In this document: in pieces, positions 3,135 through 19,293 of the stretch
Numbering within the stretch: position 1 is the first letter of the stretch
Layout of the letters: the number at the start of each line of letters is the position of its first letter
Virus record (IMG/VR): IMGVR_UViG_3300034102_000864
Coordinates: 56,592 to 76,591 of that record
Direction: 5' to 3' (one strand)
Length of the DNA stretch: 20,000 nt
DNA from: an uncultured virus (IMG/VR IMGVR_UViG_3300034102_000864)
Lineage: Duplodnaviria > Heunggongvirae > Uroviricota > Caudoviricetes
Translations under genes and position numbers: made by a program
The notes under the pieces: model-generated
What the model was told of the DNA's origin: nothing
Databases searched by the model: none
The model's input: only the letters and a program-made list of their open reading frames with translations

Positions 3135-3192
3135 CCAGTTTTCCAACTGGCACACTTGACACCAACCCCCATTTACCCTATAATATGGGGGT
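3135..3192 (+). promoter_or_regulatory. Early-type sigma70 promoter preceded by conserved box CCAGTT-N4-AACTGGCACA
   Basis: TTGACA 3156-3161, 17-bp spacer, TATAAT 3179-3184 (perfect consensus). Box at 3135-3154. Inverted repeat ACCCCCAT 3165-3172 / ATGGGGGT 3185-3192 flanks the -10. Confidence 0.9.
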
Positions 3193-3209: not shown

Positions 3210-3410
3210 ATGAGCACCGCACAAGAGACCGTCCAAGGCATTGTGATTGATGTATGCAGCAAGTCTTTTCTTCTTCTGAGTGATCAGGGAAACACCAAGA
3301 CTGTACAGTGCGACAATACCGAAGAGTTTATGAACGTGTTGGAAGTTGTTACTGCTCAACTTGATCCTGAGCAGATTGAGTATGCTGACCTTGCCATTTA
3401 CGGTGAGTGA
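3210..3410 (+). CDS. Small acidic hypothetical protein (early gene)
   Basis: 66-aa ORF directly downstream of the consensus promoter. It has no TTA or ATA codons. Confidence 0.8.
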   Translation: MSTAQETVQGIVIDVCSKSFLLLSDQGNTKTVQCDNTEEFMNVLEVVTAQLDPEQIEYADLAIYGE

Positions 3411-3426
3411 TGCTATAATATAAATA
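3391..3426 (+). promoter_or_regulatory. Overlapping sigma70 promoter and T4-type late promoter
   Basis: TTGCCA 3391-3396, 17 bp, TATAAT 3414-3419, overlapping TATAAATA 3419-3426. Confidence 0.75.
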
Positions 3427-3441
3427 CCGAAAAAGAAACGA

Positions 3442-3615
3442 ATGGAAGTTTTCACAGTGGAAGAGTTTCAAGAGAGGTTTGACGAACTCATTGAGAGAGT
3501 GGAAAACGGAGAGCAATTAGGTATAATTAATGAGAATGGGCAGGCAGCAGTTATGATGCCTGCAGATGATGACTTTGTACGAATACACACTGTGTGTAAT
3601 AACGAAGCATCATAA
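3442..3615 (+). CDS. Phd/YefM antitoxin-like small protein (57 aa, not in the ORF track)
   Basis: Translated by hand: MEVFTVEEFQERFDELIERVENGEQLGIINENGQAAVMMPADDDFVRIHTVCNNEAS. It fits the Phd N-terminal pattern (E-F..F..L..V..GE...I...G..AV.MP). Confidence 0.75.
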   Translation: MEVFTVEEFQERFDELIERVENGEQLGIINENGQAAVMMPADDDFVRIHTVCNNEAS

Positions 3616-3623
3616 ACGCAGAA

Positions 3624-3711
3624 GCGAGTGAGACTTGGTAGTCAGAGGAGTCTTATAAACTCTTTCCGCCAGATTAGCGGCTTTGACCTGGTTCGAATCC
3701 AGGCACTCGTA
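3624..3711 (+). tRNA. Non-canonical tRNA, anticodon UAU (Ile), long variable arm
   Basis: Acceptor GCGAGTG/CACTCGT, discriminator A. T arm CCTGG-TTCGAAT-CCAGG. Anticodon arm GGAGT-CTTATAA-ACTCT (TAT 3654-3656). D arm GACT-TGGT-AGTC. V arm CCGC-CAGATTA-GCGG. No encoded CCA. Confidence 0.8.
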
Positions 3712-3764: not shown

Positions 3765-4184
3765 ATGGTAGGAACTTGTAAAAAATGCGAGAAAACTTTT
3801 AAATATTCTCCATCCCAATCAAACGGCATCTATTGTTCCAATAAATGTCAGCAAGAATACCTTTATGAACAAAATATTACTGATTGGTTGTCCAAAAAAA
3901 TAACTGGAAAAGTTAGGGATGGAAGGCCAAGTGATTTTGTTAGAAGGTATATGCTTGAAGAAGCAGGACATAAATGTTCTGAATGTGGTTGGGGAAAAGC
4001 AAATCCAGTAAATGGTATTATCTACCTTGAAATAGACCACATAGATGGTTCGAGAGAAAATGGATACAAAGAAAACTTACGAGTTTTGTGTCCAAACTGT
4101 CATACTTTGACTGATACTTATAAAACTTTAAACAAAAAAGTTGGGTATCATAAAAAAAGAAAGCAGTTAAACGAGCTGGTTTAG
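3765..4184 (+). CDS. Free-standing HNH (homing) endonuclease with N-terminal Zn-binding module
   Basis: CKKC..YCSNKC module, then CSECGW, LEIDHIDGSRENGYKENLRVLCPNCH. It sits between two tRNA genes. Confidence 0.9.
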   Translation: MVGTCKKCEKTFKYSPSQSNGIYCSNKCQQEYLYEQNITDWLSKKITGKVRDGRPSDFVRRYMLEEAGHKCSECGWGKANPVNGIIYLEIDHIDGSRENGYKENLRVLCPNCHTLTDTYKTLNKKVGYHKKRKQLNELV

Positions 4185-4247
4185 CAATCTGGCGAATGCA
4201 ATCGACTCATAATCGATGGGAGGCGAGTTCGATCCTCGCAACCAGCA
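4175..4247 (+). tRNA. tRNA with CAU anticodon, non-initiator (Ile2/lysidine or elongator Met)
   Basis: Acceptor GCTGGTT/AACCAGC, discriminator A. Anticodon arm ATCGA-CTCATAA-TCGAT (CAT 4208-4210). T arm GCGAG-TTCGATC-CTCGC. Position 1:72 is paired and the three consecutive G-C anticodon pairs are absent, so it is not fMet. Confidence 0.9.
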
Positions 4248-4248
4248 C

Positions 4249-4281
4249 TTGACCACTACAACTCTATGAGTTATAATGGTC
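4249..4281 (+). promoter_or_regulatory. sigma70 promoter for tRNA-Leu with an overlapping imperfect palindrome
   Basis: TTGACC 4249-4254, 17 bp, TATAAT 4272-4277. Dyad GACCACTACAACTC-TAT-GAGTTATAATGGTC at 4251-4281. Confidence 0.75.
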
Positions 4282-4289
4282 TCATACAA

Positions 4290-4372
4290 GCGAGTATGGT
4301 GGAATCGGTAGACACACCAGACTTAAAATCTGTTGGGCATTGCTCGTGGGAGTTCAAGTCTCCCTACTCGCA
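4290..4372 (+). tRNA. trnL: tRNA-Leu(UAA)
   Basis: Acceptor GCGAGTA/TACTCGC, discriminator A. D loop GGAATCGGTAGAC. Anticodon loop CTTAAAA (TAA 4324-4326). Long V arm GGGC-ATT-GCTC. T arm GGGAG-TTCAAGT-CTCCC. Confidence 0.95.
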
Positions 4373-4378
4373 CTAAAA

Positions 4379-4745: not shown

Positions 4746-7700
4746 ATGCCTCTTAATAAGTTAGATAATTTTATCAAGAATACTGAAGGTCGTATTCTTT
4801 ATGTAAGTCCAAGTGATCTTGATTCAACAGACAGTATTGATAATCAGGGTAATTCTCTTGCCAGACCCTTTAAAACAGTTCAGAGAGCACTTTTAGAGGC
4901 TGCAAGATTTTCATATGTGAAGGGTGATGATAATGATATTACAGAAAAAACAACAATTTTACTTCTTCCTGGTGAGCACATAATTGATAATAGACCAGGT
5001 TTTAGACTTTACAATGATGCAGGGACTGCTAAAGTCGTATCACCAGATTCGAGTATTGGTGTAACAAATCCAACTGCAACTGCAGCTTTAAGTTTATCAC
5101 TTTCTTCTAATTTTGATTTAACTCAACTTGATAATATCCTATACAAGTTTAATAGTATTTACGGTGGTGTTATCGTACCTAGAGGTGTATCGATAGTTGG
5201 TTTAGACCTTAGAAAGACAAAGATTCGTCCTAAGTATGTACCAAACCCAACAGACTCATCAGCATCTAAAACTGCTATTTTTAGACTCACCGGTGCTTGT
5301 TACTTATGGCAGTTTTCTTTCTTTGATGCTAGAGAAAGTGAATTAGCATATACAAATCCAACAGATTTTACTGATACAGCAAAACCAACATTTTCCCACC
5401 ACAAAGTAACGTGTTTTGAATATTGTGATGGTGTAAACAAATATGCTAATACTGGTCTTACAGACCTTGATATGTATTATGCAAAATTATCTCACGCATA
5501 TGGCACTAGTGCTGGTACGAGAGAAATTGATCAAAAATATCCAACTGATGCTGGTGGGTTTGCAAAACAACGTCCAGAATGGGAAATTGTTGGTGCTTTT
5601 GATAGTGATGTAATTCCTGTTTCTGCAATTAGTATTAGCTCTTCTGGTAGCAATTTAGTTACAGTCACAACATCAGTTCCTCACGAATTTAATGAAGGAA
5701 CTCCAATCAAGGTTAGAAATGTAATTCCAGTAGATTACAATATTTCCACAAAAGTTCAAACAGTTTTAAGTGATACTAAATTTACTTATTTGATTCCTAA
5801 TGCAAGACGAGATCTTGACTTAAATGGCAATGCTTCTTCTGCAACTGTAGTTATTGAAACTGATACTGTTTCTGGTGCTTCTCCTTATATCTTCAACATC
5901 TCTATGCGTTCTGTATGGGGTATGAACGGAATGCACGCTGATGGTGCAAAGGCTTCTGGTTTCCGTTCAATGGTTGTTGCCCAATTTACGGGTGTTTCTC
6001 TGCAAAAAGATGATCGTGCTTTTGTAAAATACTTCCAAGATTCTAGAAAGTATATTGGAATTGATGTAACTAAAGTAACAGGATCGGAATTATCTGGTCG
6101 ATCTTCATCTACAGATCCTGGGACTGCATTCCACCTAGATCCTGCAGCAATTTACCGAAATGGTTGGGAGTCTTCTCACATTAAGGCATCGAATGATTCA
6201 TTTATTCAGGTCGTATCTGTATTCGCAATTGGATTTACTAAACATTTTGATGGAGAATCTGGTGCAGACTACAGTATTACAAACTCTAACTCTAACTTTG
6301 GACAAATTTCTCTAAATGGTGATGGTTTTAAAGCAGAAGCATTTGATAAAGATAATAATTTATTCCTGACAAATATTGTTACACCCAAATCTATTGTAGG
6401 AACGCCAAAAACCGTTGACTGGATTTCACTTGATGTTGGAGTTACAACTACTGTCGGTGTATCAACTCGACTCTATCTGTTTGGATTTAAATCTCAAGAT
6501 GATATTCCACCAGTTTTAACTCAAGGATATCGCATTGGTGGCGCAGTAAATGATAAGTTGTATGTGACAATAAACAATGTCGAATATTCGGCAGACATTG
6601 TGATGTCTGATGGAGTGACTAGTAGTGTAAAAGATTACACAGTATCAACTGTCAATAATAATAGATTTACACTAAGTAGTGCTCATACTCTAGAGAATAC
6701 AGAAAAAGTTACATTACAGAGTTTAAGTGGAGATCTTCCTGAAAATATTACCGAGCACACTGTTTATTATGCAATTACTTCTAGCATTAATGCTACTCGA
6801 ACAGATGGTATAACGTTATCATCAACTCAGATTCAACTTGCAACTTCTCAGGCAGATGCAAGTCTTGGTATTCCCGTTACAATTTATGGTGGTAAAGATC
6901 TTAAACTTTTAAGTAGAGTTCACGATAAACAAGCTGGAGATATTGGGCATTCTGTTCAGTTTGATTCTACGAATAAGCAATGGTTTATTACTGTAAAATC
7001 AACAAACAATACAATCTATAGTCAACTTGCTGCTTTAGGTGTCGGTGGATATCAAGCTAGAACTGATCCATCGTATATTAAGAGGATTCCAGATACAAGA
7101 AGTTTGGATGAAAAATTATATAAACTTAGAGTTGTCATTCCAAAAGAACTTTTGGGTGCAAAAGCTCCAGAACCTGGATTTATTATTCAAGAGAGTAGTA
7201 CAACTGGTGCAAGAAATGATTCCGATTTCCTTCTTCCAACTACCAGGAATCTAAATTATTTTGACTACAATTATAGTAAAAATCCAAGATTAATTGCAAG
7301 TTGCTCAAGATCTACTGCAGTTAATGGAGTTTATACTGTAACAGTTGTAAGTGAAACCCCTCACGATCTCCAAGTTGGCAATAGCATTAAAATTTATAAT
7401 GTAAAAGATTCTACTCTTAATCCATTTGGTGAATATGGATATGGGTATAATGGAAAGTTTTCCGTAAAATCTGTAGTAAACGATATGGCGTTTACTTATG
7501 ATATTGTATCTGGAGTATCAACAAACGCAACATTCCCAACTACAAGAGGAACTTCTTGGCCAAGATTTGAGAAAAATGATGTAAAAAATAACTTTGTTGT
7601 TTATCGCAGTGTTGTTATTTCTGAATATGCGGAAGGTCAAAGAGATGGTGTTTATCATCTGTTTGTTATAAATGCAGACAATAGAGTTGAAGAAGAGTTT

Positions 7701-10586
7701 ACTTCAAGTGCATACACTCAAAATATTGTAGATCTTTATCCACAATTAGATAGAGACAATATCAATGATAACCCTCCAGCTTCTAAATCTTATGCACTTA
7801 GAGCACCTCTGGGTAAAGTTATAACAAATGATTTAAAGCGTAGTCTTACAAGAGAAACCACAGATAAATTTGCTAGGACATTTGGGTTTGGTTTAGGAAT
7901 TACCACTGTATCAACTGCATCAACTTCTGCAACATTAAGTTTTGATAGAAATCACGGATATGGTGGTATAATTTCTGTTGGCATCTCATCTGGTGGAGTT
8001 GGATATTCAACTGGTACTTATTATAATGTTAAAATTTTACCAGATGGAACCATAACAAGTAATTGGCAAGGTGCTACTGCAACTGTTGTAGTTAATAGTA
8101 GTAGAAACGTATCTTCTGTTCAAATTACAAACCCTGGATCTGGATATGCATCAGGAACCTATCAATTAGATGAAAGTGTAATTGGAAACAACGGTGCTTC
8201 GACAAATGTATCATTGACTGTAACTTCTGGCGGCATTTCAACTTCAATTGGTCAAGTTGTGCAAGTCACTGGTATTGGTACAACATCTGATGGTTATTAC
8301 AGAATTAGTGGAGTTCCTGCTCCAAATCAAATTTCAATCGCAAAAACTGCAGGAGATCCAACAGCAATAGTTGGACAATATGCATTCCTTGTTGGTCCAT
8401 CGATCTCAATTTCCTCAATAGAATCAAATGCCACTCTTGGGATTACTACTTTCAATTGCTCTTCAGCACACGGATTAGTTGCTGGCAATAAATTTAGAGT
8501 CATTGACAGCAACAATAATAATCTTGGTGATTATTTGGTCAATTCAAGAGTTGGAGTTAACACATTTAATGTGGCATCTGCAGGTATCACCACAGCTGCA
8601 TTTGTATTGAAGCACGGATTGGCATCAAATGATGGATCTTCTGATCAGGCATCAGAAAACTTAAGTACAAGAACTAGTTTCATCTTTGATAAGGAAATTG
8701 CTTATGTTGTTGGATTTACTGATGATACAAAAATTAGAATCTCAGTTCCATCGTCTGGAGTAGGAACTGCAAATAGATTCTACTATGGATCTTACATTCA
8801 AATTGATGATGAGATTATGAGAGTTGCAAGTAACACTCTCGGTGGAACATTCAATGATGAGATTACAGTTCTTCGTGGTGTTCTTGCTACAAGAAAAGTA
8901 TCTCACGATGTTGGATCAATTATTAGAAGAATTTCTCCAGTTCCTTTAGAAATTCGTAGACCAACGACAATGAGAGCGTCTGGTCATACATTTGAATATC
9001 TTGGTTATGGTCCTGGAAACTATTCAACAGGTCTTCCTCAAGTACAAATTAGATCTCTGACGGAAAGAGAAGAGTTTCTTTCCCAATCTCAAGAAAAGAG
9101 TGGTGGTATTGTTGTTTACACTGGTATGAACAACAGAGGAGATTCTTTCCAAGGAAACTCCAAATCAACTGCAGCTAGTGGTCAAATTGTCACGTTTGAC
9201 ATTCCAACACCAACGATTACTGGTGAAAATACATCTAGATTGAGTGTTGTATTTGATGAAGTTACCGTTAAAGAAAGAATCGTTGTAGAAGGTGGTAGTT
9301 CAAATACTGTTCTTTCTCAGTTTGATGGACCATTAAATGTTAATGGTGAATCTAACTTTACTGCACCAGTTATAGTTAGACATCTCTTTACTGTTAGAGA
9401 TGAAACTGACTCTACTAGTGTTACTAATGGTGCTTTAATGGTTACCGGTGGTGCTGGTATTGCAAAGAATGTAACGATTGGTGGAACTTGTAGAGTTGTC
9501 AATACAATAGACTCCACATCTTCCACAACAGGATCTTTAATTATTTCTGGTGGAGTTGGTGTTGCAAAAACCATTACAGTTGGTGGATCATTAAATATTA
9601 ATGCTGGAATAGGGACTACTAGACTAAATTCATTAAGTGTTAGAGGAAGTAACAACTCATCTCCAATCGCAGCAAAGTCTGGTTCGCACGATACAGTTTG
9701 GTCTGTTTTACCTCATAGTGATGGAATTACTTACCTTTCTTCAGGAACATATTATGACAATGGATCTTGGATTCACGCTTCACCTAATACAAATAGTTGT
9801 CTTCTTGGAATAACTGGTCTAACTGGAGCAAGATGGTATGCATCGGGAAATTCGTCTGCTACTTGGAACTTAGCAAGTGATGTTCAACTTTGGGATAATA
9901 CTGGTGTTTGGAAAAATACTATTAACATTGGATCAAATACTGCTACCATAGGAACTTTAAATGTTACCAATACAACTACTTTTAGTAGTACTGTAAACTT
10001 TACTTCTAATGCATCTTTTGCTGATAATGATGTATTAAATTTTGGTGATGGTAATGACTTACAAATTTTCCATAATGGAAGCAATAGTTACATTGATGAT
10101 GCCGGAACTGGTATTCTATACATAAGATCTAATCAAACTGAAATACAAAAATATACTGGAGAAACAATAGCTCAATTTGTATCAGATGGAGCAGTAAATC
10201 TCTACTATGATAACTCCAAGAAATTTGAAACTACAAATACAGGAGTAAGTATTAGTGGAGAAATAACTGCCAGTGGTGATATCACAGCATTCTTCACTTC
10301 TGACCAAAGATTGAAAGATAATATTGTTGCGATTGAAGATCCACTTGCAAAAGTACTTTCAATTAGTGGTAACACTTATACTTGGAATGAAAAGTCTGGT
10401 AAAGAAGGAAATGATGTTGGTGTAATTGCTCAAGAAGTTCTTGAAGTTCTTCCAGAAGCAGTTACAACAAGAGATAATGGATATCTTGCGGTTCGATATG
10501 AAAAACTTGTCCCACTTCTTGTAGAAGCAATCAAAGAACTCTCACATAAAGTTGAAGTTCTCGAACAAAAACTACAAGATAAATAA
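4746..10586 (+). CDS. Large tail fibre/virion structural protein with C-terminal Peptidase_S74 chaperone
   Basis: 1946 aa. N-terminal pectin-lyase-like start (ILYVSP..GNSLARPFKTVQRAL..ILLLPGEH), repeated H-x-L-x-x-G beta modules, tandem STSxTxGxLxxxGGxGxAK repeats, then SDQRLKDNI..GVIAQEV..YEKLVPLLVEAIKEL from ~10299. Confidence 0.9.
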   Translation: MPLNKLDNFIKNTEGRILYVSPSDLDSTDSIDNQGNSLARPFKTVQRALLEAARFSYVKGDDNDITEKTTILLLPGEHIIDNRPGFRLYNDAGTAKVVSPDSSIGVTNPTATAALSLSLSSNFDLTQLDNILYKFNSIYGGVIVPRGVSIVGLDLRKTKIRPKYVPNPTDSSASKTAIFRLTGACYLWQFSFFDARESELAYTNPTDFTDTAKPTFSHHKVTCFEYCDGVNKYANTGLTDLDMYYAKLSHAYGTSAGTREIDQKYPTDAGGFAKQRPEWEIVGAFDSDVIPVSAISISSSGSNLVTVTTSVPHEFNEGTPIKVRNVIPVDYNISTKVQTVLSDTKFTYLIPNARRDLDLNGNASSATVVIETDTVSGASPYIFNISMRSVWGMNGMHADGAKASGFRSMVVAQFTGVSLQKDDRAFVKYFQDSRKYIGIDVTKVTGSELSGRSSSTDPGTAFHLDPAAIYRNGWESSHIKASNDSFIQVVSVFAIGFTKHFDGESGADYSITNSNSNFGQISLNGDGFKAEAFDKDNNLFLTNIVTPKSIVGTPKTVDWISLDVGVTTTVGVSTRLYLFGFKSQDDIPPVLTQGYRIGGAVNDKLYVTINNVEYSADIVMSDGVTSSVKDYTVSTVNNNRFTLSSAHTLENTEKVTLQSLSGDLPENITEHTVYYAITSSINATRTDGITLSSTQIQLATSQADASLGIPVTIYGGKDLKLLSRVHDKQAGDIGHSVQFDSTNKQWFITVKSTNNTIYSQLAALGVGGYQARTDPSYIKRIPDTRSLDEKLYKLRVVIPKELLGAKAPEPGFIIQESSTTGARNDSDFLLPTTRNLNYFDYNYSKNPRLIASCSRSTAVNGVYTVTVVSETPHDLQVGNSIKIYNVKDSTLNPFGEYGYGYNGKFSVKSVVNDMAFTYDIVSGVSTNATFPTTRGTSWPRFEKNDVKNNFVVYRSVVISEYAEGQRDGVYHLFVINADNRVEEEFTSSAYTQNIVDLYPQLDRDNINDNPPASKSYALRAPLGKVITNDLKRSLTRETTDKFARTFGFGLGITTVSTASTSATLSFDRNHGYGGIISVGISSGGVGYSTGTYYNVKILPDGTITSNWQGATATVVVNSSRNVSSVQITNPGSGYASGTYQLDESVIGNNGASTNVSLTVTSGGISTSIGQVVQVTGIGTTSDGYYRISGVPAPNQISIAKTAGDPTAIVGQYAFLVGPSISISSIESNATLGITTFNCSSAHGLVAGNKFRVIDSNNNNLGDYLVNSRVGVNTFNVASAGITTAAFVLKHGLASNDGSSDQASENLSTRTSFIFDKEIAYVVGFTDDTKIRISVPSSGVGTANRFYYGSYIQIDDEIMRVASNTLGGTFNDEITVLRGVLATRKVSHDVGSIIRRISPVPLEIRRPTTMRASGHTFEYLGYGPGNYSTGLPQVQIRSLTEREEFLSQSQEKSGGIVVYTGMNNRGDSFQGNSKSTAASGQIVTFDIPTPTITGENTSRLSVVFDEVTVKERIVVEGGSSNTVLSQFDGPLNVNGESNFTAPVIVRHLFTVRDETDSTSVTNGALMVTGGAGIAKNVTIGGTCRVVNTIDSTSSTTGSLIISGGVGVAKTITVGGSLNINAGIGTTRLNSLSVRGSNNSSPIAAKSGSHDTVWSVLPHSDGITYLSSGTYYDNGSWIHASPNTNSCLLGITGLTGARWYASGNSSATWNLASDVQLWDNTGVWKNTINIGSNTATIGTLNVTNTTTFSSTVNFTSNASFADNDVLNFGDGNDLQIFHNGSNSYIDDAGTGILYIRSNQTEIQKYTGETIAQFVSDGAVNLYYDNSKKFETTNTGVSISGEITASGDITAFFTSDQRLKDNIVAIEDPLAKVLSISGNTYTWNEKSGKEGNDVGVIAQEVLEVLPEAVTTRDNGYLAVRYEKLVPLLVEAIKELSHKVEVLEQKLQDK
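10579..10585 (+). promoter_or_regulatory. Putative late promoter
   Basis: ATAAATA 17 nt upstream of the ATG at 10603. Confidence 0.6.
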
Positions 10587-10602
10587 TTAAAAAGCATATA
10601 AA

Positions 10603-13332
10603 ATGGCAAATTATAGGAAGTCATTTAACTTTAGAAGTGGAGTTCAGGTTGATAATGATCGATTTATTGTAGATGGAAGAGGAAATGTTGGAGTAGGAAC
10701 GTCTGCTCCAAATAGAATTCTTGATGTATATGGTACTGCGAGATTTGATGGAACAACAGAATTAAATAGGATTCAAACCTCTGGAGTTTCCACATTTACG
10801 TCATTAGTAAACATTGGATCTAGTGTATTCTTAAATCCATCTACTGGGATTATATCGGCCTACTCTTATCGAGGTGATGGTAGACTTCTTGATGGTGTGA
10901 TTGCTATCGCTACTGATGGTTGGAAAGTAAAGGCAGGAACTCTTTCTACAACTTTTAGTGTTTATGTCGGTCTTGGGTCTGATATTGCTCAGACAAGATT
11001 CCAAGTTGGATTAGGAACGTCAACGTTTGTTGTTACTGATAGTGGCACTATTGGAATTGGAACAATATCACCAGCATCAAAATTTCACGTGGTTGGTGAT
11101 GCATTAATTTCTAATAGGTTAGTATCTTCAAATATTACTGTTGGTACTGGATTAAGTGTTTCTGGAATTTCTACACTTGGAGTCACCACATTCACAGGTG
11201 CCGTAAGTTTTGGTTCTTCCATTTACTTTGGTGATAATGATGTATTAAATATTGGTGATAGTAATGATTTACAAATTTATCATAGTGGATCTACTAGTTT
11301 TATTTTAGATAATGGAACTGGAAATCTTGCTTTAGGATCAAATGGAGATAGGGTTTCTATAGTAAAAGGAGATGGAACAGAAACTCTTGCAAGATTTAAT
11401 ATAGACGATTCTGTTGAACTTTGGTTTAATAACGTAAAAGAATTTGAAACCACTGGATATGGTGCAACTGTTTATGGAGTTTTACAATCCGAAGGACTTC
11501 AATCTTCTGGAATTACTACATTAGCAGTTAATAGTTCTTCGGATGCATTAAGAATTACTCAACTTGGTTCTGGAAATGCCTTAGTTGTTGAAGATGAAAC
11601 AAATCCCGATTCAACACCTTTTGTAGTTACTGGTATTGGAAGTGTTGGTATAGGAAAAGCAAGTCCCGTAGCAAAACTTGATGTTGTAGGAGATGCAAGA
11701 ATTTCTAATTCTGTTCTTGCATCTACTTTTATTGGTGATTTAACAGGAACAGCAACAAATGCAACAAACCTTTCAGATGGTGCAAATATTACTACGGGCA
11801 CAATTAATGATGCGAGATTGCCAGATATAATTACATCAAACCTATCAGCATCCACAGGAATTTCTACAGTTACTAAACTTAGATCTGAAAGTATTGGAAT
11901 TGGAACCGATACTTTTACTTCAGATTTAGCAATCATAAAGGATGCCTCAGTTTCTCTTGAATTAATTTCTAGAACGGGAAATACAACAATAGGTCTTGGT
12001 TCAGAAACTATAGGTAATAATAACACAGCAAGAATTAAATATACACCACTCAGTCAAGTTTTAGATTTTGAAAATTATGGATCTGGAGAAGTTAATTTCC
12101 ACGTTCATAAGGGAACTGGTGCAGTAGTTGGTACTCAAACTGGAGGATTTTATTTTAAAACTGGTTCTGTCAGTAGGACCTTGATGAATTTGGCTTATGA
12201 TGGAAGAGTCTCAATAAATGAAGAAGTTCCTTTATTGACTGATTTAGGTTACCGATTGATGGTCAATGGCAACACCAAAATTAGAGGAAGATTAGATTTA
12301 GATCAAGGAATAACTGCTGGTATTGTAACTGTTTCCAGTTTAAACAGTGTGAGTCCATCTACATTCCCAACAACTCAAAACTTTAACACTCAATCTGGAA
12401 TATCAACATTTAATCAGTTTAGAGTTACAAATCTATTAAATGTAACTGGTGTAAGTTCTTTTGCGGGAATTACAACGTTCCTTAGTGGAGTTTCAATTGG
12501 TAGTTCCACTGTAGGTACAAATAGCCCATTAAACATTTATTCGACAGCAACATTAACAAATTCTACTCTTGGACTGTCTACATCAAAAATTTATTATGAT
12601 TATGTGGGAGGAATAACGACAGGATTCTCAGATCCAAGAAATCAAACAAAATTAAGTGGACTTATTGCGGATCCAAATAAGAAAATTTCTGCGTTTGGTT
12701 ATGGTGATTATCAAGTAAGAACCGGTGGATTGAGTATTATTTGTCAAGATTATATTAATATACATCCATCCATTGCCATTACTACTGCAGGTAATTGGGA
12801 AGGATTGACTGTAGCAGAAAATAGTGATATGGGTCTAAGATATTCAAATGGTAGTAATTTACCAATGATTGGTATTAATACTATATTTGCAAGATCAATT
12901 GTTGATGTTGGTTATGCAGTAACTTCAATGAATAGTTACTTTATACCACCAAGATTAACGACCACAGAACTTTATTTTGTAAGTCAATTGTGGAATCCTG
13001 CAGTTGCTGGTCCTTCAGCAGGTAACTGGTTTAATCATTTGAGAGCAAATTCTTCTACTCCAAATGGTGTTGTAAGTGGTGCAATTGTTTTTGATACAAC
13101 TGCATCACAACTTAAGGTTGGTATTGGAAGCACGACTTTTGTTGGTATTGCAACATTTACAAATAATCATAGTGGATTTAGTGCATTTATTCCACCTAGG
13201 ATGAGTACCACTGAAAGAAATACAATGACAAATGCTGGTATTTCTAGTGGAGCAATCATTTATAATTCCACAACAGATAGATTGGAAGTCAGGTTAAAAG
13301 GTTCCTGGTTTGGTATTACAACTGCAGTCTAA
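10603..13332 (+). CDS. Tail fibre-like structural protein
   Basis: 909 aa, G/S/T-rich. GNVGVGTSAP..LDVYG, GIGTISPASKFHVVG and GSVGIGKASPVAKLDVVG repeats, many SGISTF motifs and a duplicated C-terminal FIPPR module. Confidence 0.85.
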   Translation: MANYRKSFNFRSGVQVDNDRFIVDGRGNVGVGTSAPNRILDVYGTARFDGTTELNRIQTSGVSTFTSLVNIGSSVFLNPSTGIISAYSYRGDGRLLDGVIAIATDGWKVKAGTLSTTFSVYVGLGSDIAQTRFQVGLGTSTFVVTDSGTIGIGTISPASKFHVVGDALISNRLVSSNITVGTGLSVSGISTLGVTTFTGAVSFGSSIYFGDNDVLNIGDSNDLQIYHSGSTSFILDNGTGNLALGSNGDRVSIVKGDGTETLARFNIDDSVELWFNNVKEFETTGYGATVYGVLQSEGLQSSGITTLAVNSSSDALRITQLGSGNALVVEDETNPDSTPFVVTGIGSVGIGKASPVAKLDVVGDARISNSVLASTFIGDLTGTATNATNLSDGANITTGTINDARLPDIITSNLSASTGISTVTKLRSESIGIGTDTFTSDLAIIKDASVSLELISRTGNTTIGLGSETIGNNNTARIKYTPLSQVLDFENYGSGEVNFHVHKGTGAVVGTQTGGFYFKTGSVSRTLMNLAYDGRVSINEEVPLLTDLGYRLMVNGNTKIRGRLDLDQGITAGIVTVSSLNSVSPSTFPTTQNFNTQSGISTFNQFRVTNLLNVTGVSSFAGITTFLSGVSIGSSTVGTNSPLNIYSTATLTNSTLGLSTSKIYYDYVGGITTGFSDPRNQTKLSGLIADPNKKISAFGYGDYQVRTGGLSIICQDYINIHPSIAITTAGNWEGLTVAENSDMGLRYSNGSNLPMIGINTIFARSIVDVGYAVTSMNSYFIPPRLTTTELYFVSQLWNPAVAGPSAGNWFNHLRANSSTPNGVVSGAIVFDTTASQLKVGIGSTTFVGIATFTNNHSGFSAFIPPRMSTTERNTMTNAGISSGAIIYNSTTDRLEVRLKGSWFGITTAV

Positions 13333-13335
13333 TAC

Positions 13336-13364
13336 TTGACATAATCCTCAAATACCACTAGACT
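13336..13364 (+). promoter_or_regulatory. sigma70 promoter
   Basis: TTGACA 13336-13341, 17 bp, TAGACT 13359-13364. Confidence 0.75.
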
Positions 13365-13396
13365 ACCTTTGTCTGGGTTGGAGATGAGGCTCTAGG

Positions 13397-13451
13397 CCAC
13401 TTTAAGAACCGTCACAGGACCCCTCACAGGGTCCTGTTTTTGCTGTATAAT
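13397..13451 (+). promoter_or_regulatory. Conserved box, hairpin and -10 element (early-type promoter, copy 2)
   Basis: CCACTT-TAAG-AACCGTCACA 13397-13416; TATAAT 13446-13451. Confidence 0.75.
13414..13441 (+). terminator. Rho-independent terminator-like hairpin
   Basis: ACAGGACCC-CTCACA-GGGTCCTGT followed by TTTT. Confidence 0.65.
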
Positions 13452-13464
13452 ATTCCTATATTCA

Positions 13465-14700
13465 ATGAGACCTGTGATTCAACTCCGTCCACACCAAGAA
13501 CGTGCTCTGGATGCTCTTGTCAAGTATCAGAAAGGTCAAGTCATCATTCCGACTGGTGGTGGTAAGACCAACGTTGCTATCTTTGATGCTTTGCGTGAGT
13601 TTCAATCTGATGCTCCTAAGACCATTGTAGTGGTTGCTCCTCGCATTCTACTTGCTGAGCAACTTTCTAGTGAGTTTCTTGAGTTTATCACCACTGCTGC
13701 TGTTCTTCACGTTCACAGTGGTGAGACGCATCACCAGAGCACCACTAAACCTGCTGAGATTCATAACTGGTCTCTTCGTGCTTATAAGCATCAACTGATT
13801 TTCACTACCTACAACTCCCTGCAACGTCTGCAACAGGCAGATCTTAAGGTTGATACGATTTACTTTGATGAGGCACACAACAGTGTTCAACGTCACTTTT
13901 TCCCTGCTACGGAGCACTTCTCTTCTACTGCTGACCGCTGCTATTTCTTCACTGCTACTCCTAAGCATTCTGCTACTATTTCCAAACCTGGGATGAATGA
14001 TGGTGCAGTGTATGGTCAGGTGATCTGCAATGTGCCAGCACCTGAACTTGTTGAGGGTGGTTTCATTGTGCCCCCTAAGGTTGTGGTGCAGCAGTTTGAG
14101 ATGCTGGGTAAGGGTCAAATCGTTGCTGATGTTGACTGTGAGAATCTGATTCAGACCATCGATGCTCAAGATGTGGGTAAGGTTCTGATTTGCTCCAAGG
14201 CAACTAAGCAGATTCAGAATCTGGTTTCTCAGACTGATTTTTGCACTCAACTGGAGGATCGTGGTTATTCTTGGATGTATATTACTGCCAAGACTGGTGC
14301 CGTGATTGATGGTCGTAAGGTCAACCGTGAGGTATTCTTTGACACTCTCTCTGCTTGGGGCAAGGATGACTCTAAGAAGTTCGTTGTTCTTCACCACAGC
14401 ATCCTGAGCGAAGGCATTAACGTTTCTGGACTGGAGGCAGTGCTGTTTATGCGGTCTATGGACTACATTGGGATCTCCCAGACCATCGGACGGGTGATCC
14501 GTCTCCACAAGGACGACGCAGAGGGTCTCAGCAGTGGCAGGATTGCCCCTGGTGCCCTTGCAGACTACACCAAGTCGTTTGGACTGGTCTGCATCCCTGT
14601 CTACTCTTCTGTGGGCATCAGCACCGCAAAGAAGGTGCAAGCAGTGGTCGATACGGTGTTCAATCAAGGTCTCCCTGCCATCAGCGTTGTCAAACGTTGA
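13465..14700 (+). CDS. Superfamily 2 DEAD/DEAH-box helicase (ResIII-like)
   Basis: Q motif LRPHQ, Walker A PTGGGKT, VVAPRILL, TTYNSL, DEAH, TAT, LSEGINV, QTIGRVIR. The start could instead be GTG at 13474. Confidence 0.93.
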   Translation: MRPVIQLRPHQERALDALVKYQKGQVIIPTGGGKTNVAIFDALREFQSDAPKTIVVVAPRILLAEQLSSEFLEFITTAAVLHVHSGETHHQSTTKPAEIHNWSLRAYKHQLIFTTYNSLQRLQQADLKVDTIYFDEAHNSVQRHFFPATEHFSSTADRCYFFTATPKHSATISKPGMNDGAVYGQVICNVPAPELVEGGFIVPPKVVVQQFEMLGKGQIVADVDCENLIQTIDAQDVGKVLICSKATKQIQNLVSQTDFCTQLEDRGYSWMYITAKTGAVIDGRKVNREVFFDTLSAWGKDDSKKFVVLHHSILSEGINVSGLEAVLFMRSMDYIGISQTIGRVIRLHKDDAEGLSSGRIAPGALADYTKSFGLVCIPVYSSVGISTAKKVQAVVDTVFNQGLPAISVVKR

Positions 14701-14715
14701 TTTTTCTGCTAAACT
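14687..14715 (+). promoter_or_regulatory. sigma70 promoter with extended -10
   Basis: TTGTCA 14687-14692, 17 bp, TGc-TAAACT with the -10 at 14710-14715. Confidence 0.55.
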
Positions 14716-14740
14716 ACTTACACACAAGGAGGAATCCCCA

Positions 14741-14878
14741 ATGCGTTGCAAAGTCGAACTCTATGTTGCTGGTAAAGTGTTCTATGAGCACGTTGAAGCA
14801 CGGGACTATCAGGATGCCAAACGTACTGCAATTGCACGTAATCCAACAGCAAAAGTGGTCAGTGTGACTGCCGTATGA
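14741..14878 (+). CDS. Small hypothetical protein (45 aa, MRCKVELYVAGK...)
   Basis: SD AGGAGG at 14727-14732. ATGA overlap with the next gene. The track start at 14534 overlaps the helicase. Confidence 0.85.
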   Translation: MRCKVELYVAGKVFYEHVEARDYQDAKRTAIARNPTAKVVSVTAV

Positions 14879-15096
14879 ACATTCAAAACGAAACTCTCCT
14901 GAACTCTGTACCAGGAGACCCAAATGGATATGTGACTAAAGATGGAATGTGGGCAGCAGTTCCTTGGGGAAAAAAATTCATTATCATTCATAATGGACAT
15001 CAAGTTCATACTGCAAACAACTACAAATCCGCAAAAACCTACATTCAAAAGTCCGCAAAAGGTGCATCGGTTTCTAGTTTAGATAAGTTTCTTTAA
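14875..15096 (+). CDS. Hypothetical protein
   Basis: 73-aa ORF joined to the previous gene by an ATGA overlap. Confidence 0.8.
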   Translation: MNIQNETLLNSVPGDPNGYVTKDGMWAAVPWGKKFIIIHNGHQVHTANNYKSAKTYIQKSAKGASVSSLDKFL

Positions 15097-15128
15097 ACTC
15101 GTTAAATAGTATAACTGTCCTACACATT

Positions 15129-15299
15129 ATGGAAGAATCTTCTGAACTCAAATGGAATCGTGGTCTTGACTTGTTTATTGAAAGTGTTCATAAACCAGAC
15201 CACGAACTCCGTCAATGTGCTCACAATCAAAAGTGTTACAACGAACTAATGGCAGTTCGTGACCACGTTTTAGAATATCTAAAAACAATCAGACGATGA
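15129..15299 (+). CDS. Hypothetical protein (56 aa, not in the ORF track)
   Basis: MEESSELKWNRGLDLFIESVHKPDHELRQCAHNQKCYNELMAVRDHVLEYLKTIRR. TAAATA at 15103-15108 upstream; ATGA overlap downstream. Confidence 0.8.
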   Translation: MEESSELKWNRGLDLFIESVHKPDHELRQCAHNQKCYNELMAVRDHVLEYLKTIRR

Positions 15300-15526
15300 C
15301 TTATTACGGTTGGTTTGTTGTATTTGCAGTAGTGGCATACTTCATTGTAACAGATGATAGTGTCGCTGCTGCTTTTTATTATCTTATAAGGTTAGCAAAA
15401 TCTAACTTTGAGAAACAAAAGTGGTGGTTACTGAACAATCCACGTAATCCTGTGGTAAAATATCTAATGTGGCGTCGTTCTATGAAACTCGCAAAGGAGT
15501 TAATGGACGAATACGAAAATAAATAA
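15296..15526 (+). CDS. Small predicted membrane protein
   Basis: Hydrophobic N-terminus YYGWFVVFAVVAYFIV and an ATGA overlap with the previous gene. Confidence 0.75.
   Translation: MTYYGWFVVFAVVAYFIVTDDSVAAAFYYLIRLAKSNFEKQKWWLLNNPRNPVVKYLMWRRSMKLAKELMDEYENK
15519..15525 (+). promoter_or_regulatory. Putative late promoter
   Basis: ATAAATA 21 nt upstream of the ATG at 15547. Confidence 0.55.
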
Positions 15527-15546
15527 CACTACATCTGGTAATACGT

Positions 15547-15873
15547 ATGCTCTCTACACAATATCGCCTGCGTCTTGAAGTAATCTGCGATAAGATTGCA
15601 ACTGGCGATGAGGTGAGTTTAGAAGATATGATCTGGGCAGAAAAACTTGCAAAAGCAAATCGATCTGCTGGAACAATGCTACGTCAGGCAAGAAGGAAAG
15701 CAGAAAATCCTGATATGCAAGACGGAGATATGGATGATTTTTTGAATCAACTTGACATTGGTGGTACTGGAAACGAACGTTTTGGTATTAAAGGATTTAA
15801 TAGTGTTGATGATATTGTAGATTTCTTTGGTGAAGGTAGGGATAAACCAGATGATTGGAGACAACGTGACTGA
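15547..15873 (+). CDS. Cyanophage-type hypothetical protein (MLSTQYRLRLE...DDWRQRD)
   Basis: 108-aa ORF resembling a family recalled from T4-like cyanophages; function unknown. Confidence 0.8.
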   Translation: MLSTQYRLRLEVICDKIATGDEVSLEDMIWAEKLAKANRSAGTMLRQARRKAENPDMQDGDMDDFLNQLDIGGTGNERFGIKGFNSVDDIVDFFGEGRDKPDDWRQRD

Positions 15874-16369
15874 TAGAATTATCAGTCAATACACTGACAT
15901 ATTTGATGAAACCCAGGTAAATAATATTTGGGAATACTTAACTAAACCAAATTGGGGATTTTGGCAGTCTAGTAGACCAGACTCTAAAAATTTTTTCTGG
16001 TATATGAATCTTGATGATCATTCCTTTTTCACTCAAGAATTATTTTCTAAAATTAAAACTTTAATTGGTGAAGATTTTTTTATTGAAAAAGTCTATGCGA
16101 ATGGTCAAACTTTCGGATTAGATGGGGAATTTCATATTGATGACCCAGATGATAATGCATATACTTTTCTTTATTACCCTATGAGAGATTGGAATTTATC
16201 TTGGGGTGGTGAAACAGTCATTCTTGATCCTGAAGGTGTGATAAGCACTATACATCCGATGCCAAATAGTGCTATAATATTCCCATCAAATTGGTTACAC
16301 TGTGGTAAATCACCATCTAAAAACTTCACAGATTTGAGAGTCACCATTGCTTATAAATTGAAAAAATGA
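15866..16369 (+). CDS. 2OG-Fe(II) oxygenase (prolyl-4-hydroxylase-like)
   Basis: HxD (FHIDD), WNLSWGGET, FPSNWLHCG and the distal R (LRVTIAYK). Probable GTG start at 15866 after SD GGAGA; the track start is 15827. Confidence 0.9.
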   Translation: MTDRIISQYTDIFDETQVNNIWEYLTKPNWGFWQSSRPDSKNFFWYMNLDDHSFFTQELFSKIKTLIGEDFFIEKVYANGQTFGLDGEFHIDDPDDNAYTFLYYPMRDWNLSWGGETVILDPEGVISTIHPMPNSAIIFPSNWLHCGKSPSKNFTDLRVTIAYKLKK

Positions 16370-16551
16370 AACCCAACTTTCGTAAGGTATTAGAGATGGC
16401 ACTGGAAGAAGGTGTTCGATTTGGATACAATCGTGCTCATAAACACGTAGAAAATCCACATCAAGATGCTGTGGTTGATTGTGTGGTAGATTGTGCGATG
16501 AACTCCCTGTATGAATGGTTTGATTTTGAGGAGAACAATGAACTTGGTTAA
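16366..16551 (+). CDS. Hypothetical protein
   Basis: 61 aa with an ATGA overlap. Confidence 0.8.
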   Translation: MKPNFRKVLEMALEEGVRFGYNRAHKHVENPHQDAVVDCVVDCAMNSLYEWFDFEENNELG

Positions 16552-16837
16552 ATTTAATAAACGCAAATTTTTGATTAAGTACAATCATCGTGAAGATTTT
16601 GGGCACGAATGGTATGTTCAGATCTTAAATATCAAGCGTTGGAGTTTGATTCAAGCATCTGTAAGTTGGAATGATTATCCATCCTGGCCTTATCTACAAA
16701 TTAAGTCTGGATCTGGTGATGTGTTGAGTATTCTATTTTGGGCATATAAGTTTGGATTTGATATTGATTTTATCTCTCGCACTTGGAACTGGGATCATTT
16801 GGAGGAACTAGATGAAGACGAAACTGAACTGGTTTGA
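16538..16837 (+). CDS. Hypothetical aromatic-rich protein
   Basis: SD GAGGAG before the ATG at 16538; the track start at 16511 is less likely. Confidence 0.75.
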   Translation: MNLVKFNKRKFLIKYNHREDFGHEWYVQILNIKRWSLIQASVSWNDYPSWPYLQIKSGSGDVLSILFWAYKFGFDIDFISRTWNWDHLEELDEDETELV

Positions 16838-17159
16838 GTATTACTTCGGTCATTGTTTCCAAACTGGTTGGAGAGAAATCTGGAACAACTTTAAGATGTG
16901 GAGAGATCTCATCAGTGGAAACTATGCCGATTATGCTCTGCTAAAGAATGACGACCCATACGAAGAATGTTATCAGTGGTTCTGGACTTCTATCAATCTT
17001 GACGAAACATATCCTAAAGAGTTTCTTGAGTACCTGATGGAAATGTGTGACAGAATTGATCGGGGTGAAGAGAAACTGATTCCATTGGATGAAGATTTCT
17101 TTAATAGAATAAAAGAACTTACTGATGATATAGAGTTGAATGATGAAGACTTTACCTGA
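16812..17159 (+). CDS. Hypothetical protein
   Basis: 115 aa with SD GGAGG at 16801-16805. Confidence 0.8.
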   Translation: MKTKLNWFEYYFGHCFQTGWREIWNNFKMWRDLISGNYADYALLKNDDPYEECYQWFWTSINLDETYPKEFLEYLMEMCDRIDRGEEKLIPLDEDFFNRIKELTDDIELNDEDFT

Positions 17160-17343
17160 TAAAAGAGAACTGGATATTATGTGGACGGTTGCCACATCGA
17201 CCAGTATTGAAACTGGCACAAGACCCCACTACGGGTTTGCCAACCTGCTGTATGATTACCTCACAGACAACCTCAAAAACAAATACGGAGTTGAACTCTG
17301 CTATGAACCTCAAAGAGAAGAAGGCACTGCTCAAGAAACTTGA
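17140..17343 (+). CDS. Hypothetical protein
   Basis: 67 aa, filling the gap between overlapping neighbours. Confidence 0.65.
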   Translation: MMKTLPDKRELDIMWTVATSTSIETGTRPHYGFANLLYDYLTDNLKNKYGVELCYEPQREEGTAQET

Positions 17344-17575
17344 GACTGCCTACAATACCTGTTTTGATTGTGGGAAGAAGTATGGAGTGTATTCTGTAGG
17401 ATGCTCCTCTGTTTATGAGTCAAAGTGTGGTGTATGTGGTGAAATCAAACCCATTACGGAGACTCGTGACTTTGCTTATTTCTTTCCTACCATTCGAAAA
17501 CTGAAACTAGAGATTCAAAATGAGAAGAGTAACAGTCAAACCAAAGTCCAGCAAAGCGAAGAACCGTCTTGCTAA
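17303..17575 (+). CDS. Zn-ribbon-like hypothetical protein
   Basis: MNLKEKK.. with CFDC and CGVC motifs. The ATG at 17303 is preferred over the track start at 17189. Confidence 0.7.
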   Translation: MNLKEKKALLKKLETAYNTCFDCGKKYGVYSVGCSSVYESKCGVCGEIKPITETRDFAYFFPTIRKLKLEIQNEKSNSQTKVQQSEEPSC

Positions 17576-17735
17576 TACTATGGACAACAATCCTGTTTGT
17601 ATTGTAGAGCAGGATACTGGTGGTGAATTGTTCCTTGCTTCCGAAAATCGTAAATACTTTTTTTGGGTTAGCACTCGCACTGGTACTAACCGTTTTGGTG
17701 ACAAATCTGACGCACATTGGGAGGTTATTGAATGA
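17520..17735 (+). CDS. Hypothetical basic protein
   Basis: 71 aa with an ATGA overlap with the next gene. Confidence 0.75.
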   Translation: MRRVTVKPKSSKAKNRLANTMDNNPVCIVEQDTGGELFLASENRKYFFWVSTRTGTNRFGDKSDAHWEVIE

Positions 17736-18013: not shown

Positions 18014-18194
18014 TACTCTCAACTACTTCATACAAGACCAAGAAGGACACCTACAATGTCTTGAATGGGACATCAGGGAGGAAACCAATTATGAGAACAA
18101 TGACATTGATTGGTATTGTGAACAGTATGATGAAGCAAAACAACGAATAGAAGACCTTAAACAAATCAAATCCATTATTGAAGCACAACAATGA
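18000..18194 (+). CDS. Acidic hypothetical protein
   Basis: 64 aa in the overlapping gene chain. Confidence 0.75.
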   Translation: MPLLDTLNYFIQDQEGHLQCLEWDIREETNYENNDIDWYCEQYDEAKQRIEDLKQIKSIIEAQQ

Positions 18195-18890: not shown

Positions 18891-18938
18891 AGAACTGGCA
18901 CAGGGCATCTCCACAGGTGCCCTTTTTCGTTGTATAAT
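18883..18938 (+). promoter_or_regulatory. Conserved box, hairpin and -10 element (early-type promoter, copy 3)
   Basis: ACACTT-GAAG-AACTGGCACA 18883-18902; TATAAT 18933-18938. Confidence 0.8.
18902..18927 (+). terminator. Rho-independent terminator-like hairpin
   Basis: AGGGCATCT-CCAC-AGGTGCCCT followed by TTTT. Confidence 0.6.
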
Positions 18939-18960
18939 GACTTTATAAACAAACAAACCA

Positions 18961-19293
18961 ATGACTGAACTTACTCCTGAAGCACAAGCAGTTGTAGATG
19001 CCTTCTATCGTGAATTGCCCCCAAACTATCAGCAAGGAGGTATTACTGCTGCTCTCCGTGCTGCTATTGATAGTGTAGTTCCTGAAGAAGCAGAAGCACC
19101 GAGGGCACAGTTTGATTGTCCTCCTCGTAAGTTGTGGTCAATCAATAAAGAAAAAGAAAGGTGGGGATATGAGCATTCAGATCATCTGAGGAGGCAGTTT
19201 GCTCAAGACAAACTGGATATTCGTTGGGAACAACGACAACAAACCCGTGCTTTGATGCTTGCTATTGTCGTTGAACTTGAGAACCTGAAATGA
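18961..19293 (+). CDS. Hypothetical protein (paralog family member 1)
   Basis: 110 aa directly after promoter copy 3. It has no TTA or ATA codons. Confidence 0.8.
   Translation: MTELTPEAQAVVDAFYRELPPNYQQGGITAALRAAIDSVVPEEAEAPRAQFDCPPRKLWSINKEKERWGYEHSDHLRRQFAQDKLDIRWEQRQQTRALMLAIVVELENLK

Follow-up and report, generated by a model that had tools for sequence, protein, structure and literature searches.

Avoidance of A-ending split-box codons in the helicase gene of an uncultured lake-water cyanomyovirus and its association with host genus among cultured relatives

Bacteriophage T4 carries eight tRNAs of its own that complement its codon usage, and the codon-usage classes of its genes were reportedly tied to the time of their expression by Cowe and Sharp in 1991 and by Kunisawa in 1992. 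In the bldA regulon of Streptomyces, TTA codons are read by one developmentally regulated tRNA. Here, these systems are compared with a 20,000-nucleotide stretch (the window) of an uncultured virus (IMG/VR record IMGVR_UViG_3300034102_000864, positions 56,592 to 76,591), which makes up the last 20 kb of one viral contig of 76,591 bases, and in particular with the codon usage of a predicted superfamily 2 (SF2) helicase gene encoded there. The phage resembles T4 in being an AT-rich T4-type phage with tRNAs for A-ending codons that its early genes use less than its late genes; it shares with T4 a tRNA-Leu(UAA) and a reader of AUA, and its relatives also share Arg-UCU, Thr-UGU, Ser-UGA, Pro-UGG, and Gly-UCC tRNAs. 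It differs in that its host would be a GC-rich picocyanobacterium, in that the contrast between gene classes is sharper (TTA in 0/78 Leu codons and ATA in 0/46 Ile codons of the early-type pool, the temporal classes here being inferred from motifs), and in that its AUA reader combines the anticodon UAU with a long variable arm. The likeness to bldA is that a single rare Leu codon with a limiting reader can switch sets of genes. In this phage, however, TTA outnumbers every other Leu codon in most genes and is no rare mark, and many other codons behave alike; a bldA-like gating through TTA was rejected since a fraction of 0.44 of the Leu codons in the late-gene pool are TTA (ATA, 0.25 of Ile codons).

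Among cyanophages, low-GC cyanomyovirus genomes have been described as supplemented by their own tRNAs with AT-rich anticodons (Limor-Waisberg et al., 2011; PMC3152331). As in the present case, the phage tRNAs in the passages of that paper drawn on here belong to the T-starting anticodon family and supplement the tRNA pool of GC-rich Synechococcus; TAT (Ile) is listed among the anticodons absent from cyanobacteria. The analyses in these passages are genome-wide, and "late genes," "helicase," and an early/late or gene-level partition are absent from them. In the T4-like Synechococcus cyanomyovirus Syn9, early genes are likewise poorer in UUA and AGA: UUA accounts for 0.81% of early, 2.49% of middle, and 1.46% of late codons, and AGA for 0.79%, 2.78%, and 1.97%, respectively (Zborowsky et al., 2025; PMC11726456, Table S1). 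According to the portions of that study used here, UUA, AGA, and ACA are overrepresented in those phage proteins whose synthesis fails, and UUA and AUA comprise only 0.09–0.46% and 0.35–0.53% of codons in two Synechococcus genomes (PMC11726456, Table S2). The study was an experimental one on host resistance; the same portions contain no comparison of orthologues across host genera and do not single out a set of genes behind sigma-70 promoters that is fully free of TTA, ATA, and AGA. The principle is already in print, and the mechanism considered here is not a new one. What is added is the gene-level sharpness of the partition, the match to host genes by wobble class, and the switch of the codon profile with host genus.

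A preliminary description of the window, made from the sequence alone, had stated that the helicase gene lacks TTA and ATA codons, and counting confirmed this (0/30 Leu and 0/30 Ile codons). The avoidance extends well beyond these two codons: TCA (0/29), ACA (0/27), and CGA (0/17) are missing, CTA occurs once, and AGA (1/17), CCA (2/16), GTA (2/41), and GGA (3/27) are rare, whereas GCA (10/33) and CAA (14/25) are still used. The third position is A in 41 and T in 176 of 412 codons, the G+C fraction at third codon positions (GC3) is 0.47, and the overall GC content is 0.48 versus approximately 0.35 in the surroundings. The anomaly is therefore the whole codon dialect of the helicase, a near-total avoidance of A-ending codons in split codon boxes. 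The virion genes have a GC3 of 0.13–0.19, and the two large genes upstream (Table 1) agree with the earlier statement that late genes use TTA and ATA freely. To compare genes, the share of TTA, ATA, AGA, ACA, TCA, CCA, GGA, and GTA among the codons of their amino acids, hereafter F, was calculated for the 57 genes of at least 90 codons. The helicase (F = 0.037) is exceeded in its avoidance only by gp32 (F = 0.016), a gene located far from it (contig positions 42728–43651) with TTA in 0/31 Leu and AGA in 0/13 Arg codons and a GC3 of 0.43; the next lowest value is 0.14 and the median 0.355. The gp59 gene, directly upstream of gp32 and without a promoter box, uses TTA in 5/16 and ATA in 4/13 cases.

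Such a profile could in principle be purely compositional, with the helicase locally GC-richer through mutation bias or recombination and the loss of TTA and ATA a side effect. When TTA/Leu and ATA/Ile were regressed on the GC3 of the remaining codons across the other contig genes, only 1.9 TTA (probability of zero, 0.14) and 2.7 ATA (0.06) were expected in the helicase, and all of its A-ending codons are low, as such a side effect would have it. The comparison with a GC3-matched null that the preliminary description had called for thus gave a divided answer. Most of the absence of TTA and ATA from the helicase follows from the general GC3 shift, but helicase and gp32 pooled over this phage and three relatives fall far below expectation, with approximately 24 TTA and 16 ATA expected and 2 and 0 observed. 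In addition, when codons were resampled from the nine other contig genes with a GC3 of at least 0.33, none of 20,000 trials was free of both TTA and ATA, and the helicase third position is rich in T, not in C. In helicase and gp32, the A-ending share of the Lys, Glu, and Gln boxes drops from 0.79 to 0.47 (odds ratio 0.24, 95% confidence interval 0.17–0.34), and that of the split boxes from 0.43 to 0.07 (odds ratio 0.10, confidence interval 0.07–0.15; 0.05 without Ala), a drop that is 2.4 to 5 times stronger as an odds ratio. Cyanobacteria lack the CTT, CTC, and CTG anticodons in the part of the tRNA survey used here (Limor-Waisberg et al., 2011), such that the Lys, Glu, and Gln boxes each depend on one tRNA; the weaker drop in these boxes indicates that avoidance is strong only where a codon requires a tRNA of its own with a UNN anticodon. 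Composition by itself is accordingly regarded as an improbable explanation.

A constraint of a different kind would exist if the 367-residue open reading frame (ORF) on the opposite strand of the helicase (Table 1) were a real overlapping gene, since TTA, CTA, and TCA would then be barred from the helicase frame. The length of the ORF and its exact codon register with the helicase, as previously noted [(14751-13465) mod 3 = 2], would fit such a gene, and an open run as long as this one did not arise in any of 20,000 synonymous resamplings. The related statement that 13651–14700 contains no CTA also holds, as the only CTA of the gene lies at 13648–13650, where the antisense ORF ends. In orthologues, however, the same frame contains in-register stops (0 in S-SM2, 1 in S-SCSM1, 6 in S-SKS1, 14 in P-SSM2, and 20 in P-TIM68), ATA, ACA, and AGA are avoided as well although they create no stops on the opposite strand, and gp32 displays the same avoidance. 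An overlapping gene is thus next to inconceivable and was rejected because the frame is closed in S-SKS1 and in Prochlorococcus-phage orthologues; from these comparisons, the ORF appears to be a by-product of the missing TTA, CTA, and TCA codons and not a conserved gene.

The helicase orthologue was compared in 13 cultured cyanomyoviruses, and its profile separates them by host. All eight orthologues from Synechococcus phages (S-SCSM1, S-SKS1, S-SM2, Bellamy, S-T4, S-PM2, S-RIM50, and Syn9) contain 0–1 TTA, 0–1 ATA, and 0–3 AGA, with F between 0.03 and 0.17, while all five from Prochlorococcus phages (P-SSM2, P-TIM68, P-RSM4, P-SSM7, and P-SSM4) contain 4–14 TTA and 3–17 ATA, with F between 0.26 and 0.43. 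The Synechococcus-phage orthologues keep the profile at 45–68% protein identity, and helicase and gp32 of Syn9 contain neither TTA nor AGA. Phages of the two host types are intermixed in the helicase tree, on which three changes of the Prochlorococcus label are required, at least two of them forced by well-supported branches. The same host-type trend is seen in gp32, gp45, and MazG. The retention of the profile in 8/8 and its loss in 5/5 orthologues speak further against a purely compositional origin. The number of phage tRNAs also splits with host, at 6–25 in Synechococcus phages (S-SCSM1, 9; S-SM2, 11; S-SKS1, 13; Syn9, 6; S-PM2, 25; S-RIM50, 8; S-T4, 7; Bellamy, 10) versus 0–4 in Prochlorococcus phages (P-TIM68, 0; P-SSM2, 1; P-SSM4, 0; P-HM1, 0; P-HM2, 0; P-RSM4, 3; P-SSM7, 4). 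P-HM1 and P-HM2 have no helicase orthologue and were used only for gp32 and tRNA counts.

These relatives also bear on whether the helicase, perhaps with gp32, was recently acquired horizontally from a GC-richer phage or host and has yet to ameliorate. Its GC content relative to the surroundings and its 76% nucleotide identity to the S-SKS1 gene would fit such an event. On the other hand, the position of the gene is conserved in P-SSM2, S-SCSM1, and S-SKS1, in each of which the tail-fibre module is followed by the helicase and then by small genes; the highest protein identity, to S-SCSM1, is merely 68%; and the same bias is present in the orthologues of other AT-rich Synechococcus phages. Moreover, host genes end in C (psbA GC3, 0.77–0.87) where helicase and gp32 prefer T, which argues against transfer from the host. 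Recent acquisition is thus very unlikely, and on the grounds of synteny, T-ending bias, and conservation it was rejected.

To characterize the host side, psbA was taken as a stand-in for a highly expressed host gene. In four marine Synechococcus, psbA contains no TTA, ATA, AGA, or TCA, 0–1 each of ACA, CCA, and GTA, 2–4 GGA, and 4–5 GCA. Helicase and gp32 of the phage avoid the set that psbA avoids, and both phage and host genes tolerate GGA and GCA. Codon by codon, the correlation of relative synonymous codon usage between the phage genes and psbA is modest (r = 0.28–0.41), since C is favoured in the host at positions where T is favoured in the phage. When codons were pooled by their likely reader into 30 wobble classes (NNY, NNA, NNG), the correlation with the four marine Synechococcus psbA genes rose to 0.97–0.99 for helicase and gp32, compared to 0.41–0.52 for late genes; with psbA of freshwater Cyanobium and Synechococcus the values were 0.88–0.97 and 0.27–0.59, respectively. 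The preliminary description had implied a host of higher GC content, and this is supported by the tracking of host type in 13/13 relatives, by the wobble-class match to psbA, and by the fact that the closest relatives infect Synechococcus.

Temporal classes, including that of the helicase, are defined here by promoter motifs only, namely a sigma-70-type box versus the motif TAAATA. The helicase is not mentioned in the main texts of PMC7238727 and PMC6708340, and no temporal class for it was found in the supplement of PMC7238727. The early-promoter box that had been proposed upstream of the helicase is real as a motif. It combines a terminator with an early-type promoter (13414–13451) and ends 13 nt before the helicase start, and further hairpin/T-run/TATAAT builds and sigma-70-type sites occur in the window (Table 1); the gp32 box reads TTGACC-17-TATAAT. 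Pooled over the genes directly behind such boxes, TTA and ATA are both absent, as compared to 198/558 Leu and 102/600 Ile codons in genes with TAAATA promoters (Fisher p = 4e-14 for TTA and 5e-4 for ATA), and the early-class genes, so defined by motif, are therefore poorer than the late-class genes in the codons matched by phage tRNAs. This includes the ORFs at 3210–3410, 14741–14878, and 18961–19293, for which the counts bear out an earlier statement that they lack TTA and ATA. The claim that the depletion tracks promoter class holds for the boxed pool relative to the late genes and fails in part elsewhere, as there are two exceptions among boxed ORFs (given below), the unboxed small genes at 14875–19878 are intermediate (TTA 17/121, or 14%; ATA 12/81, or 15%), and the late gp23 gene of relatives avoids TTA and ATA too. 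In the complete relatives, motif-based promoter classes are noisy and lend weak support only, with TTA fractions of 33/359 versus 137/802 in S-SM2 and 124/425 versus 447/1057 in P-TIM68.

Table 1. Positions of genes, tRNAs, and promoter-like elements in the 20,000-nucleotide window.
Feature	Position	Strand	Details
Perfect sigma-70 consensus, TTGACA-17-TATAAT	3156..3184	+	Upstream of ORF 3210
DUF7294 small gene	3210..3410	+	TTA 0/6, ATA 0/4; GC3 0.48
Sigma-70-like site, TTGCCA-17-TATAAT, TG-extended	3391..3419	+	Upstream of ORF 3442 and tRNA(UAU)
Phd/YefM-like small gene	3442..3615	+	29.4 bits versus cut-off of 29.8; TTA 1/2, ATA 2/4
tRNA, anticodon UAU	3624..3711	+	ARAGORN; 88 nt, 3-bp D stem, long class-II-like variable arm
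HNH endonuclease gene	3765..4184	+	Between tRNA(UAU) and tRNA(CAU)
tRNA, anticodon CAU	4175..4248	+	ARAGORN; Rfam 55.2 bits
Sigma-70-type site, TTGACC-17-TATAAT	4249..4277	+	13 nt upstream of tRNA-Leu
tRNA-Leu(UAA), TTA reader	4290..4373	+	ARAGORN; Rfam 58.4 bits
Tail-fibre gene behind TAAATA late motif	4746..10586	+	GC3 0.17; TTA 42/126, ATA 19/134, AGA 56/76
Late structural gene behind TAAATA motif	10603..13332	+	GC3 0.15; TTA 31/68, ATA 16/71
Sigma-70-like site, TTGACA-17-TAGACT	13336..13364	+	Just past tail-fibre gene, upstream of hairpin
Hairpin and T run, then TATAAT	13414..13451	+	-35-like CTCACA in hairpin loop
Predicted SF2 helicase gene (cyanomyovirus core "helicase")	13465..14700	+	411 aa; ResIII 6.8e-19, DEAD 9.4e-17
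Antisense ORF	13648..14751	-	367 aa, in register with helicase
Hairpin and T run, weaker sigma-70-like TTGTCA-17-TAAACT	14680..14715	+	Upstream of ORF 14741
Conserved phage gene (phrog_685)	14741..14878	+	45 aa; TTA 0/1, ATA 0/1
Hairpin, T run, TATAAT box, same build as at 13414	18902..18938	+	-35-like CACA in loop
110-aa gene	18961..19293	+	TTA 0/10, ATA 0/5; behind 18902..18938 box

The tRNA island with UAA, UAU, and CAU anticodons that had been read from the sequence was recovered by ARAGORN, and these three are the only tRNAs on the contig, which is partial, such that further tRNAs may be encoded elsewhere in the genome. The close relatives S-SCSM1, S-SM2, and S-SKS1 encode tRNAs Leu-taa, Ile-tat, Arg-tct, Thr-tgt, Gly-tcc, Pro-tgg, and Ala-tgc, with Ser-tga in S-SM2 and S-SKS1 and Val-tac in S-SM2. 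Since these sets cover the avoided codons, to say that A-ending codons are avoided and to say that phage-tRNA codons are avoided amounts largely to the same thing. The codons matched by the tRNAs are frequent in the phage and scarce in the host, where the host proxies are Synechococcus and may not be the host of this phage. The tRNA(UAU) is unusual. Its variable arm has a 4-bp stem and a 7-nt loop, and it did not match Rfam RF00005 even at E<=1. It nonetheless folds into an ARAGORN cloverleaf, and its acceptor, T, and variable-arm stems carry compensatory changes both in S-SKS1 and among 17 distinct IMG/VR variants, in which the anticodon loop is invariant owing to the way the loci were chosen, as it was included in the search pattern. 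A tRNA(tat) of 88–91 nt was present at 70 of 80 fetched loci (of at least 119 matches), and the variable-arm loop of the long-armed form always contains GAT, the anticodon of the major tRNA-Ile; S-SCSM1 and S-SM2 instead have an ordinary 74-nt tRNA(tat). Between this tRNA(UAU) and its counterpart in the reservoir phage S-SRM01, identity is 98.9%. A limited literature search found no report of a long-variable-arm tRNA in cyanophages. For the tRNA(CAU), the G1-C72 pairing argues against an initiator, leaving elongator Met or Ile2 as candidates, and blastn against Escherichia coli genomes gave no match. The HNH gene overlaps the start of this tRNA by 10 nt and looks like a mobile endonuclease inserted in the tRNA cluster; the tRNA(UAU)-HNH-tRNA(CAU) layout is shared by S-SRM01, and in S-SKS1 and S-SM2 the two tRNAs are directly adjacent.

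How the phage tRNAs are used in time can be read in more than one way. The preliminary description had proposed a translational timing gate, in which late proteins await the build-up of phage tRNAs and codon choice schedules or licenses the late programme. In its favour, AGA accounts for 28/65 Arg codons in the late gene gp23 versus 3/92 in helicase, gp32, and gp45 of three Synechococcus phages, all of which have tRNA-Arg(tct) (Fisher p = 4e-10); this split is the best hint that phage tRNAs may be counted on later in infection. The proposal is nevertheless unlikely: the TAAATA promoters of the late genes make a second timer superfluous, TTA and ATA, precisely the codons at issue, are avoided by gp23, and small non-late genes use TTA and ATA at the intermediate frequencies given above. 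The sensitive host WH8102, moreover, expresses the same tRNAs itself in the data of PMC11726456 considered here. The sigma-70-type promoter that the tRNA-Leu has to itself (4249–4277) has been counted on both sides. A more far-reaching version, which we consider equally doubtful, is that the phage tRNA set, transcribed from bacterial-type promoters, acts as a true translational licence and a host-range switch. In GC-rich picocyanobacteria, the AT-rich late proteome, including the AGA-, GGA-, and GCA-using capsid gene of the relatives, may then await the phage tRNAs, the TTA-, ATA-, and AGA-free early set may run on host tRNAs alone, and the widespread long-armed tRNA(UAU) may be a dedicated AUA reader in hosts without a UAU tRNA. 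If this were true, the codon profile of helicase and gp32 would predict the host genus of uncultured cyanophages.

The identity of the phage rests on gene content and synteny. By these measures it is a T4-like cyanomyovirus: PHROG and Pfam matches on the contig include tail fibres, baseplate, tail tube, and head-closure genes as well as a gp59 loader, gp32, ThyX, PhoH, and an exonuclease, and the core gene order is of the T4 type, as judged from gene families and synteny with P-SSM2, S-SCSM1, and S-SKS1. Capsid and terminase genes were not found on the partial (76.6 kb) contig. An SF2 helicase is expected to join an N-terminal ATPase core (ResIII/DEAD) to a helicase domain at the C terminus. 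The helicase matches the Pfam families ResIII (68.8 bits) and DEAD (61.7 bits) above their cut-offs, with Helicase_C just below (21.8 bits versus 23.5), and phrog_16, "DNA helicase," at 8e-64. It has matches in 427 phage records, nearly all cyanophages, of which 425 are full-length, and its best protein match is S-SCSM1.

Several further observations concern the phage and the surroundings of these genes. All 24 listed public runs that contain parts of 10001–20000 are labelled as lake-water or freshwater metagenomes, and 10 of these contain at least half of the sampled words; no RNA run is among the 24. From the run labels, fresh water appears to be the habitat of this T4-like cyanophage. The 132-nt gap before the helicase holds the TTGACA-17-TAGACT site followed, approximately 50 nt on, by the strong hairpin and T run, and the segment 13336–13442 might give rise to a short non-coding RNA or form an attenuated leader on the helicase mRNA. 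The Phd/YefM-like gene lies between an early-type/late-type promoter pair, in which the sigma-70-like site (11/12 match) overlaps a TAAATA late motif, and the tRNA(UAU); no toxin partner was seen beside this antitoxin-type gene. Outside the window, at contig positions 26672–35882, three paralogous large genes of phrog_19111 (624, 627, and 746 residues) alternate with glycosyltransferase-like genes and have the most extreme A-ending usage on the contig (A at 0.44–0.48 of third positions and 23–30 AGA per gene).

The observations to be accounted for are the codon partition, the wobble-class match to host psbA, the conservation of the profile, and its switch with host genus. In our view, they probably result from translational selection acting on genes that have to rely on the tRNAs of the host. 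The majority of genes, and most markedly the virion genes that follow TAAATA motifs, have an AT-rich baseline (GC3 of approximately 0.15) and make free use of NNA codons such as TTA, ATA, AGA, ACA, TCA, CCA, GGA, and GTA. Selection would keep the helicase, gp32, and the small genes at 3210, 14741, and 18961 on codons read by abundant tRNAs (NNY, NNG) of a GC-rich picocyanobacterial host; by taking T over C at the wobble position, these genes remain fairly AT-rich. The phage supplies tRNAs for the avoided codons, here Leu-UAA, the unusual Ile-type UAU tRNA, and a CAU tRNA, and in complete relatives more; at least one of them (tRNA-Leu) has its own bacterial-type promoter. Host RNA polymerase would transcribe the boxed genes early, their codons would be selected through high expression and through the supply of tRNAs as infection begins, and the rest of the genome would drift AT-rich and lean on the phage tRNAs.

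A number of findings weigh against this explanation. The GC3 regression alone already predicts few TTA and ATA in the helicase. The host comparison has psbA as its one proxy, and helicase and gp32 also correlate with psbA from other cyanobacteria (r = 0.77–0.94, or 0.77–0.99 over all cyanobacteria tried); with a fair correlation throughout, the test is supportive but not sharp. On the phage side, gp32 is also low in F in two Prochlorococcus phages (P-SSM7, 0.11; P-RSM4, 0.17), and gp23, the late major capsid gene, contains only 2/114 TTA and 0/57 ATA in three Synechococcus phages, indicating that expression level matters alongside timing; the tail-tube gene does not avoid these codons (F of approximately 0.42). 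Middle genes are the class richest in UUA and AGA in the Syn9 table cited above, which implies that replication genes are not uniformly adapted. As for promoters, sigma-70-like matches are not enriched in the window (52 versus 70.9 +/- 9.3 in shuffles), ORF 3442–3615 is boxed yet uses both TTA and ATA, a 50-residue ORF at contig position 38469 with a 10/12 box match has two ATA, and the contrast in TTA between the motif-based classes of S-SCSM1 is modest (50/482 versus 254/1063).

The codon profile of helicase and gp32 separates Synechococcus-type from Prochlorococcus-type cyanomyoviruses in 13/13 cultured relatives, and it places the lake phage with GC-rich hosts, thereby offering a handle on the biology of an uncultured phage from its sequence only. 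The avoided codons appear to be set by which host tRNA must read them and not by GC content alone, and such reader-defined avoidance agrees with experiments showing that the success of a cyanophage infection can depend on the supply of tRNAs.

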